A stretch of DNA of 64,000 bases from Spongiactinospora sp. TRM90649. GTDB lineage: Bacteria > Actinomycetota > Actinomycetes > Streptosporangiales > Streptosporangiaceae. Of this stretch, positions 23,339 through 23,670 are shown piece after piece. Made by a program: the position numbers and the translations under genes. The notes under the pieces were generated by a model. That model had not been told where the DNA came from. It searched no databases and saw nothing but the letters and a program-made list of their open reading frames with translations. Numbering within the stretch: position 1 is the stretch's first letter; each line of letters opens with the position of its first letter. Location: NCBI RefSeq assembly GCF_029382225.1, contig NZ_JARLTC010000013.1, forward strand, positions 78,657 to 142,656. The letters run 5' to 3'.

Positions 23339-23529
23339 GCCATTGTTTATCGCATAATTCGTCGAAATCGGTCCCAATTTAGGATTTCTCATACTCCGCG
23401 CGACGGGTCACGTCCCCCCCGTAACCTCACGGGGTGGGGACGCGGGCCACCGGGAGTATCCGGAAGGGTCGCCGGCGACACCGGGCGCTGAGCCCCCGCG
23501 ACGGCCCTGCCGCTGCTACCGTTGCACGC

Positions 23530-23580
23530 ATGCAGCGTGCCGCCATGACGACGACGCCGGAGACCGTCCCGGCGCGCTGA
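23530..23580 (+). other. putative leader peptide ORF MQRAAMTTTPETVPAR (three consecutive ACG Thr codons) in the 5' leader of the thrS paralog
   Basis: Seen in the sequence. It is followed 20 nt later by the GC hairpin CCCCGGGG-cgagtg-CCCCGGGG plus TTTCG (23600-23626), then the thrS paralog start (23671) with a GAGGAG RBS. Confidence 0.35.
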
Positions 23581-23599
23581 CCACTGCGTTACACCAGGC

Positions 23600-23626
23600 C
23601 CCGGGGCGAGTGCCCCGGGGTTTCGC
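23600..23626 (+). terminator. terminator/attenuator-like hairpin (8-bp GC stem, 6-nt loop, short T tract)
   Basis: CCCCGGGGCGAGTGCCCCGGGGTTTCG, 45 nt upstream of the thrS paralog ATG. Confidence 0.4.
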
Positions 23627-23670
23627 CTTGCGGTCGCTCGCCTCACCCGATCGATCGTGAGGAGACCGCG

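Follow-up and report, generated by a model that had tools for sequence, protein, structure and literature searches.

Auxiliary aminoacyl-tRNA synthetases of actinomycetes are tied to antibiotic self-protection and intrinsic resistance. One such enzyme, a truncated threonyl-tRNA synthetase (ThrRS) of the thrS2 type, is encoded in Spongiactinospora sp. TRM90649 within a window of 64,000 nucleotides (nt), the whole stretch of DNA analysed here (contig NZ_JARLTC010000013.1, positions 78,657 to 142,656 of the forward strand); coordinates below are those of the window. The gene, thrS, is preceded by a leader that holds a small upstream open reading frame (uORF), thrL, with a run of Thr codons, and a GC-rich hairpin. 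Judged from its sequence and its relatives, this leader is most likely a ribosome-mediated attenuator that would read tRNA-Thr charging through the Thr codons of the leader peptide, a reading given a probability of about 0.7.

The thrL leader and its synthetase gene

The uORF at 23530-23580 of the forward strand reads ATG CAG CGT GCC GCC ATG ACG ACG ACG CCG GAG ACC GTC CCG GCG CGC TGA. Its product, MQRAAMTTTPETVPAR, has 16 codons with 4 Thr, including three consecutive ACG codons at 23548-23556. Downstream lies the hairpin, whose core consists of CCCCGGGG (23599-23606), the loop CGAGTG (23607-23612) and CCCCGGGG once more (23613-23620), followed by TTTCG; counting the adjoining A-U and G.U pairs, the stem covers 23596-23606 / 23613-23623. 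The Shine-Dalgarno (SD) sequence GAGGAG at 23659-23664 is 6 nt from the thrS ATG at 23671. In these respects, namely the uORF with its three consecutive ACG and 4 Thr in 16 codons, the GC hairpin downstream of it (23596-23623), and a truncated thrS with a ribosome binding site, the original prediction agrees with what is read directly from the DNA. Its leader of 278 nt does not hold: 23393-23670 is the divergent intergenic region between thrS and an upstream neighbour gene on the minus strand (22850-23392), and a -10 box stands 7 nt before the uORF ATG. The uORF is almost certainly leaderless, its promoter being located at about 23494-23522. The transcribed leader is probably about 141 nt long and begins at the uORF AUG, since the -10 box is conserved and the transcription start site (TSS) of thrL in Streptomyces lividans is leaderless. 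The leader RNA (23530-23676) folds at -71.4 kcal/mol, with z = -2.78 against dinucleotide shuffles.

The features of the locus are listed below, all on the forward (+) strand. P0 to P4 denote candidate helices, AT is the candidate antiterminator, and MFE stands for minimum free energy.

23517..23522, +, -10 hexamer TACCGT, with TGC before it (extended -10-like) and 7 nt to the uORF ATG
23530..23580, +, thrL leader ORF, MQRAAMTTTPETVPAR then stop; frame kept in relatives; AUG is the probable transcript 5' end
23533..23542, +, P0 5' strand CAGCGUGCCG; predicted partner 23570-23579 in the untranslated uORF (MFE fold, RNAalifold consensus)
23548..23556, +, three ACG (Thr) codons, the putative sensor; second and third ACG invariant in the family
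23552..23560, +, segment 1 CGACGCCGG, overlapping Thr codons 2-3; partner 23569-23576 (P1)
23566..23578, +, segment 2 GUCCCGGCGCGCU, ending in the stop codon; partners are segment 1/P0 or the P2 5' arm (AT)
23596..23606, +, P2 5' arm (segment 3), part of a 13-bp helix in the family
23607..23612, +, P2 loop CGAGUG, core of the P3 5' strand GGCGAGUGCC (23605-23614); covaries with 23635-23642
23613..23623, +, P2 3' arm (segment 4), followed by UUUCGCCUUG without a canonical U tract
23625..23644, +, P4 5' strand (anti-SD region), from the MFE fold and the cognate duplex test
23632..23642, +, segment 5, the P3 3' strand GG-U-CGCUCGCC, complementary to the P2 loop and apical stem
23653..23674, +, P4 3' strand with the SD GAGGAG and the thrS ATG, from the MFE fold and the cognate duplex test
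23671..24894, +, auxiliary threonyl-tRNA synthetase, thrS2 type (Pfam, TIGR00418, alignment to 1qf6)

Segment 5 is located inside the 5' strand of the SD-sequestering helix. A consensus promoter and terminator scan, based on sigma-70 and U-tract consensus and not on this organism's type, called neither the thrL promoter nor P2.

The open reading frame at 23671-24894 encodes 407 aa and matches only Pfam PF00587 and PF03129, the class-II catalytic core and the anticodon-binding domain. It covers positions 171-562 of the thrS equivalog model TIGR00418 and aligns with residues 242-632 of E. coli ThrRS (1qf6). Because the matches cover only the catalytic core and the anticodon-binding domain, the TGS and editing domains are absent, and the enzyme corresponds to the solved N-terminally truncated E. 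coli ThrRS construct (1evk). The N-terminal region removed in truncated ThrRS holds the domain that edits Ser-tRNA-Thr, and for an editing-less enzyme conditional expression makes sense. The conserved spacing between SD and start across orthologs points to ATG 23671 as the real thrS start (407 aa), and not GTG 23650. The latter, 7 codons upstream and within the GUGAGGAG Shine-Dalgarno region, is the start in the public ThrRS model P0001 of the same strain (414 aa), which is 100% identical to the window protein. Variable His/Asp/Pro-rich extensions, for example MHDRLMHDRPAHDRPMQDHPAHDHR, stand ahead of the conserved HDHRxLGREL in thrS2 of four Streptomyces loci (L026, L028, L036, L038) and look like tandem duplications of the HDHR motif.

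Conservation and probable translation of the leader

A protein-based search with one genome per species yielded 39 actinomycete loci with ThrRS 62-78% identical. The same leader stands upstream of the orthologous truncated thrS at 38 of the 39, the exception being a 5'-truncated gene fragment (L037), and the genera that carry it include Streptomyces, Kitasatospora, Sphaerisporangium, Amycolatopsis, Marinactinospora, Frankia, and Kribbella. Metagenome contigs were searched for an exact pattern in which two ACG codons and segment 2 are fixed. This gave at least 120 further matches; 111 of them have enough downstream DNA, and at least 88 are complete leaders. All but one of the 111 decidable matches precede a truncated-type thrS, and the remaining one precedes an internally deleted thrS remnant. 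At more distant ThrRS loci (51% identity or less) the leader motif was not found. This recurrence is more than chance. Since the leader is present at 38/39 and 110/111 loci and absent at 51% identity or less, it is, as far as sequence can tell, a specific and ancient companion of the truncated thrS paralog.

Two alignments were used, one of the 39 genome leaders, identified by way of the protein, and one of 127 sequences that includes the 88 metagenome leaders. The family layout begins with TANNNT, 6-7 nt, ATG (A/C)AG CGC GC..., and a variable stretch. The Thr block follows as ACG ACG ACG CCG GAn nnn GTC CCG GCG CGC TGA, and the 3' part consists of the 13-bp hairpin CGAAGCCCCGGGG-CGAGUG-CCCCGGGGCUUCG, then GGUCACUCGCC, GAGGAG, and the start codon. 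The distance from stop codon to hairpin core is 12-22 nt across the family. The Thr run, the reading frame, the position of the stop codon, and the hairpin are all conserved among orthologous leaders, and the architecture first proposed, a Thr-codon leader peptide with a GC hairpin, is supported in every comparative test run.

No Rfam family matched the leader region in a gathering-score scan of the whole window, Thr_leader (RF00506) and T-box (RF00230) included, and a scan of 23200-23800 at E up to 10 gave noise only (serC leader, E 1.5; Burkholderia sRNA 37, E 0.8). The thrL family is absent from Rfam and could be curated as an RNA family.

Individual copies depart from this layout. At L127:2070-2500 (+), a complete thrL leader (uORF MQRAGMTTTPESPPAR then stop, hairpin, SD) precedes a 37-codon remnant (MVHRSIIGTVER...) that resembles a C-terminal ThrRS motif, with a transporter-like open reading frame next; this is an internally deleted thrS with its leader kept. 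In two Streptomyces copies (L004:3900-3990 and L024:3880-3965), the P3 3' strand and the SD are separated by an additional hairpin, long and rich in GC. In L004, the segment from the end of P2 to the start codon folds at -74 kcal/mol and the P2 loop is aberrant (CGCUCG).

The uORF is taken to be translated from a leaderless transcript because of the spacing from -10 box to ATG, the mapped leaderless TSS of S. lividans, length changes in steps of 3 nt, and a frame-changing copy from Marinactinospora. In all 39 genome leaders and in the 88 from metagenomes, 6-7 nt separate TANNNT from the uORF start, a spacing typical of leaderless transcripts. The distance from a conserved 5' GCG motif to the Thr-codon block takes values of 13, 16, 19, 22, 28, 31, 34, and 43 nt and is 1 mod 3 in 118 of 120 copies, so that length changes of the uORF respect the frame. 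The Marinactinospora copy (L017:3868-3921) has a 1-nt deletion 3' of the Thr codons. Its peptide tail becomes ...TTTPEVSRRAD with the UGA 4 nt further downstream; the Thr codons stay in frame and CCCGGCGCGCUGA is intact in the RNA, which means that the conservation of the tail acts on RNA and not on peptide.

Runs of at least three Thr codons, ACG with few exceptions, occur in 122/127 copies (96%), and all copies have at least two. Of the 127 copies, 118 have ACG at the first of the three positions, 4 have a different Thr codon there, and 5 a non-Thr codon. The second and third ACG are invariant in all 127; in the metagenome set they were imposed by the pattern searched for, whereas the 39 genome leaders were free to vary there. 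Within the genes of the window ACG is a minor Thr codon (30%, vs 65% for ACC). The uORF stop is TGA in 127/127 and ends segment 2 in 126 of them, lying 4 nt later in L017. The peptides follow the pattern M(K/Q)RA...T(T)TP(E/G)xVPAR-stop.

Alternative pairings in the leader RNA

The predicted pairings give the leader RNA the classical 1:2 / 2:3 / 3:4 geometry of an attenuator, in which segment 1 overlaps Thr codons 2-3 and segment 2 ends in the UGA. Complementarity is 95-100%; covariation is seen for 3:4, and none is possible for the invariant 1:2 and 2:3. P0 joins the 5' part of the uORF, CAGCGCGCC, to its 3' part, GGCGCGCUG, and is predicted by both the MFE fold and the RNAalifold consensus, with 89-91% of cells paired and changes that are one-sided (wobble) only. 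P1 joins CGaCGCCGG, at Thr codons 2-3, to CCGGCGCG; the two strands are 100% complementary and invariant in 127 sequences, with no covariation. The block CCCGGCGCGCTGA of segment 2 is invariant in the 39 genome leaders, also at synonymous sites. AT is formed by segment 2 (GUCCCGGcGcGCU) and the P2 5' arm AGCcCCGGGGC, with 95% of cells paired in 127 sequences. Complementarity together with invariance is the evidence for P0, P1, and AT, and such invariance is typical of sequences serving several pairing partners.

P2, the 13-bp helix, is 97% paired in 39 sequences and 92.7% in 127. Four of its pairs are changed on both sides, and G.U pairs are present, which argue for P2 acting as RNA rather than as a DNA palindrome. 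Its family mean free energy is -29.3 kcal/mol. The first account had described P2 as terminator-like. The GC hairpin is indeed strong and conserved, and it has no canonical U tract. The 10 nt after the GC core contain 2-7 U (mode 5), the mode after the extended stem is 3, the tail in the window is TTTCGCCTTG, and the family tail is CUUCG.... Terminators of Streptomyces validated by Term-seq have very stable hairpins and also only 3-4 U in 10 nt (PMC12207403), for which reason termination at P2 is plausible by analogy.

Folding supports the existence of a mutually exclusive alternative to P2, as had been anticipated. The masking geometry uses general ribosome footprint sizes. By this geometry, a ribosome stalled at any ACG would cover segment 1 and leave segment 2 free, and a ribosome terminating at UGA would cover segment 2. 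When the Thr codons are masked as by a stalled ribosome, the nascent RNA folds into AT at -19 to -23 kcal/mol. With no ribosome mask, nascent-RNA folds hold segment 2 in P0/P1.

A further pairing, P3, links the apex of P2 to the region ahead of the SD. The P2 loop is variable (CGAGUG, CGAACG, CGGGUG, CGCACG, and others), and together with two closing G's (GGCGAGUG) it is complementary to the downstream element CACUCGCC, which is CGCUCGCC at 23635-23642 in the window. P3 is paired in 94.5% of cells in 39 sequences and 93.7% in 127. In the larger set, slid strands give 33-69% and strand shuffles 90.7 +/- 0.3%, with 0/1000 reaching the observed value. Compensatory changes occur at four loop positions (UA 50/CG 31/UG 28; AU 92/GC 8/GU 7; GC 106/GU 9/AU 4; GC 112/AU 4/GU 4). 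One natural combination, in L023 and L030, has GAACG for GAGUG in the P2 loop and GUUCG for CACUC in segment 5. Two more pairs, between a conserved GG and the two C's that open the P2 3' arm, can extend the helix (88% paired). Because P3 uses the closing G's and these two C's, full P3 and P2 are mutually exclusive apically.

In folds of single sequences, the partner of the SD/start region (P4) contains or adjoins the P3 3' strand. Cognate anti-SD/SD duplexes average -18.5 kcal/mol vs -15.9 +/- 0.23 kcal/mol for non-cognate ones, an advantage of 2.5 kcal/mol, and 0/2000 permutations reach the cognate mean; the register of the helix differs between lineages. In the AT state with a ribosome mask, P3 (SD open) and P4 (SD closed) are about 5 kcal/mol apart on average and equal in 7/39 leaders. 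Comparison of the family establishes P2 and P3, the in-frame leaderless Thr-codon uORF, and the co-evolving complementarity of P4. It also suggests a second, translational layer linking the P2 apex to the SD region, since P3 covaries and overlaps the partner of that region.

Other roles were considered for parts of the leader and its gene. An anticodon mimic or T-box formed by the P2 loop and the UGGU after P2 was rejected, as the loop varies and the YGGU is often CGGU. The loop GAGUG of P1 as an alternative anti-anti-SD was rejected because it is not conserved. A self-resistance gene linked to a biosynthetic gene cluster was likewise rejected: thrS is surrounded by HTTM, fasciclin, ECF sigma, hydrolase, MFS, and hydratase genes and is conserved across genera with differing upstream sequence.

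Elsewhere in the window, the divergent promoter region holds an imperfect GC hairpin at 23411-23440 (GTCCCCCCCG-taacctca-CGGGGTGGGGAC), ahead of the thrL promoter. This hairpin is not seen upstream of the other loci, and its Rfam matches are noise only (serC leader, E 1.5). Genes for tRNA-Phe(GAA), tRNA-Asp(GTC), and tRNA-Glu(TTC) form a cluster at 14614-14921 (-), and there is no tRNA-Thr gene within the window.

Attenuation models and known systems

The observations can be assembled, tentatively and at rather less than even odds, into a relay of six segments with two outputs, in which the position of the ribosome at the three ACG codons would set both the read-through of RNA polymerase and the translatability of the read-through transcript. 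Transcription would begin at the thrL AUG, and a 70S ribosome would load on the 5' end of the RNA. When Thr-tRNA is plentiful, the ribosome would reach the UGA and mask segment 2 (GUCCCGGCGCGCU-GA), allowing P2 (3:4) to form; when the uORF is untranslated, P0/P1 would hold segment 2 and P2 would form as well. P2 would then attenuate transcription as a strong hairpin with a weak U tract, like those at Streptomyces 3' ends. It would also lock its own apical sequence, leaving the C-rich segment 5 to pair with the SD/start region (P4) and keeping thrS silent. When Thr-tRNA is scarce, through starvation or inhibition of the housekeeping ThrRS, the ribosome would stall on ACG and cover segment 1, with segment 2 free. 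Segment 2 and the P2 5' arm would form AT, P2 would be delayed or prevented, and RNA polymerase would read on. The freed apical GGCGAGUGCC would pair with segment 5 in P3, an anti-sequestor that precedes P4 in 5'-to-3' order, so that the SD would be open and ThrRS made. Stalling at ACG, a terminating or blocking role for P2, and the direction of the P3/P4 effect are steps that we infer.

Several observations weigh against the attenuator reading and this relay. Segments 1 and 2 and the AT core are invariant, and complementarity is what identifies their pairings. Two of the ACG codons are inside an invariant pairing segment, whose conservation could serve pairing rather than decoding, and the invariance in the metagenome set is partly by construction, as its pattern fixes two ACG and segment 2. 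At equilibrium, P2 is favored over AT by about 11 kcal/mol, also when the ribosome mask is applied, and the SD is never freed in masked full-leader folds, where P2 and P4 persist in all states; equilibrium MFE folds of the masked leader do not by themselves show the switch. The SD is unpaired with a probability of 0.29, the same as with composition-matched shuffled upstream sequence (0.29), and its sequestration is therefore not claimed from accessibility. A pseudoknot of P2 and P3 is conceivable as well, and would reverse or cancel the translational logic. The tail of P2 is not a canonical U tract, and termination at the S. lividans thrL hairpin has been called "not clear" by Droste et al. 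(PMC8079986). Because P2 wins at equilibrium and masked folds keep the SD closed, the relay needs co-transcriptional kinetics, and with P2+P4 as the thermodynamic ground state, its ON state has to be a kinetic one.

Some of these points suit simpler attenuators. If transcription alone were attenuated, P2 would be the sole output, a Streptomyces-type intrinsic terminator possibly aided by NusG, and P3/P4 would be secondary, acting on mRNA stability or basal translation. This is unlikely, if a serious contender. The 1:2 / 2:3 / 3:4 geometry is complete by itself, SD pairing is no stronger than in shuffles, the precedent of trpRS1 is described as transcriptional attenuation, and a mean P2 energy of -29 kcal/mol with 2-7 U (mode 5) compares well with the 3-4 U of Streptomyces Term-seq terminators (PMC12207403). 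It leaves the conservation 3' of a terminator unexplained, and it is countered by the compensatory changes of P3 at four loop positions (94% paired) and the co-evolving complementarity of P4. Those same two helices favor an attenuator that is purely translational, of the ermC or actinobacterial leuA "LEU element" type, in which P2 would not end transcription but only hide an anti-anti-SD, and stalling would free the SD via AT and P3, any loss of transcript being secondary Rho polarity. SD sequestor/anti-sequestor leaders have been proposed in Actinobacteria by Seliverstov et al. (PMC1262725), and a canonical U tract is missing at a hairpin whose terminating function was judged unclear in S. 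lividans (PMC8079986). This version is nonetheless rather improbable, as a tail of 3-4 U is the norm for terminators of this clade, and AT+P3, the ON state, has a predicted stability 10-15 kcal/mol below that of P2+P4 and needs a kinetic trap.

Two other explanations do away with the reading of Thr codons. A general sensor of translation stress, in which antibiotics would induce stalling on the nascent peptide as in whiB7 or erm leaders, has in its favor the induction of thrS2 within the WblC/WhiB7 antibiotic-response regulon (PMC7157823), a WblC-type GAAAW motif at the expected position in 42/126 promoters, and the conserved peptide tail PExVPAR. The tail is explained by RNA constraint, as segment 2 is invariant at synonymous sites and the L017 tail is altered with its Thr codons and RNA preserved. 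The motif is absent from the window copy, and the leader codons are cognate to the enzyme under control, which is also true of the S. lividans leaders of trpS, leuS, and alaS (PMC8079986). Such a sensor is hence quite improbable. Least credible is an untranslated structured RNA or a protein-bound DNA palindrome, for instance ThrRS autoregulation in the style of the E. coli thrS operator, with the small reading frame incidental. The CCCCGGGG repeats are indeed palindromic at the DNA level, and E. coli thrS is autoregulated via an anticodon-arm mimic. Against it, the 3-nt periodicity of indels, the fixed spacing from -10 to ATG, and the mapped leaderless TSS point to translation; P2 contains G.U pairs; its loop varies and covaries with the downstream strand, keeping no anticodon-like sequence; and neither the gathering scan of the window nor the search of 23200-23800 at E up to 10 gave a match to T-box or another Rfam family.

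The codon-reading attenuator gains a wider setting from its promoter. In S. coelicolor, thrS2, trpS (SCO3334), and alaS2 belong to the WblC/WhiB7 regulon and are induced by translation-targeting antibiotics (Lee et al. 2020, PMC7157823). The WblC site is GAAAWY, 3 nt upstream of the -35 element (PMC7157823). GAAAW stands at -34 to -32 from the start of the -10 element in 42/126 thrL promoters (for example L001, L004, L011, and L031), and it is absent from 23460-23516 of the window and from the Amycolatopsis, Marinactinospora, and Kribbella copies. In S. lividans, a leader peptide with cognate codons, transcribed leaderless, precedes each of alaS (SLIV_01315), trpS, and thrS (Table 4, PMC8079986), and these genes appear to be the same paralogs as the WblC-activated alaS2, trpS, and thrS2 of S. 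coelicolor. Taken together, the two papers suggest a common two-input design stated in neither of them, in which auxiliary synthetases would combine a general stress promoter with an amino-acid-specific attenuator.

If the dual relay is true, its combination with a WblC/WhiB7 promoter in many species would make an AND gate that responds to translation stress and Thr-tRNA shortage, and an AND-gated, editing-less ThrRS would suit competitors' ThrRS inhibitors such as borrelidin. The authors of the S. lividans study left open how leaderless attenuators work where canonical terminators are rare, and the relay would explain in general how leaderless leader peptides of actinobacteria can operate when these are missing. 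The leader marks the editing-less ThrRS as conditionally expressed, which bears on Ser-for-Thr mistranslation under stress. A family of at least 127 sequences with invariant sensor segments is also a concrete, mutable model of leaderless attenuation in high-GC bacteria.

Compared with the enterobacterial trp and thr operon leaders (RF00506), thrL shares a peptide with regulatory codons, the 1:2 / 2:3 / 3:4 arrangement, a stop codon beside segment 2, and, in the model, super-attenuation when the leader is untranslated. In those systems the leader ORF follows an SD, the terminator has a canonical U tract, regulatory codons are far more numerous, and the targets are biosynthetic operons, whereas thrL is leaderless and has three codons, a weak U tail, a synthetase target, and the extra P3/P4 module. 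With ermC and the actinobacterial leuA "LEU" leader (Seliverstov et al. 2005, PMC1262725), the model shares a stalled leader ribosome that would bring about refolding and uncover the SD; in thrL, two helices separate the SD module from the stall site, and the link runs through the loop of a terminator-like hairpin. The Bacillus thrS T-box and the E. coli thrS operator serve the same gene class and respond directly or indirectly to tRNA-Thr/ThrRS status, but thrL has no T-box match and a variable, covarying loop in place of an anticodon mimic.

The auxiliary trpRS1 (SCO3334) of S. coelicolor is closer in kind. It is reportedly under ribosome-mediated attenuation, to go by the title of a 2010 paper by Vecchione and Sello (J Bacteriol 192:3565, cited in PMC4787780), and is the precedent that has been studied by experiment. 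Like thrS2, it is an auxiliary synthetase paralog related to stress and antibiotics, with a cognate-codon attenuator and membership in the WblC regulon; it differs in its amino acid and in a leader of unrelated sequence. The S. lividans trpS also has a leaderless leader peptide, like thrS (PMC8079986).

The closest counterpart is thrL of S. lividans TK24 (MKRVRPFLETTPGFVPAR then stop), which has a mapped leaderless TSS upstream of thrS (Droste et al. 2021, Front Microbiol, Table 4, PMC8079986). That entry overturns the view in the original prediction that no such leader was known for a ThrRS gene. The peptide is leaderless in both, with the C-terminal pattern MKRVRPFLETTPGFVPAR vs ...TTTPETVPAR, and each has one hairpin without a U-rich stretch; unlike the window copy, S. 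lividans thrL has only two Thr codons. Compared by peptide, it fits the pattern M(K/Q)RA...T(T)TP(E/G)xVPAR-stop and is evidently of the same family, and the S. lividans thrS is presumably the truncated paralog. In the Term-seq supplement of the S. lividans TU paper, this thrS (SLIV_19410, with thrL as SLIV_19412) is lowly expressed. Droste et al. give thrL one paragraph, with no alternative structures and no comparative analysis (PMC8079986), so that what was already known is a member of this family, listed without a mechanism. The present finding is in that sense confirmatory rather than surprising. New to it are the wide conservation of the leader (at least 127 copies, with Streptomyces, Frankia, and Kribbella among the genera), an explicit antiterminator, the conservation of the frame, and the covarying link between the hairpin loop and the ribosome binding site.

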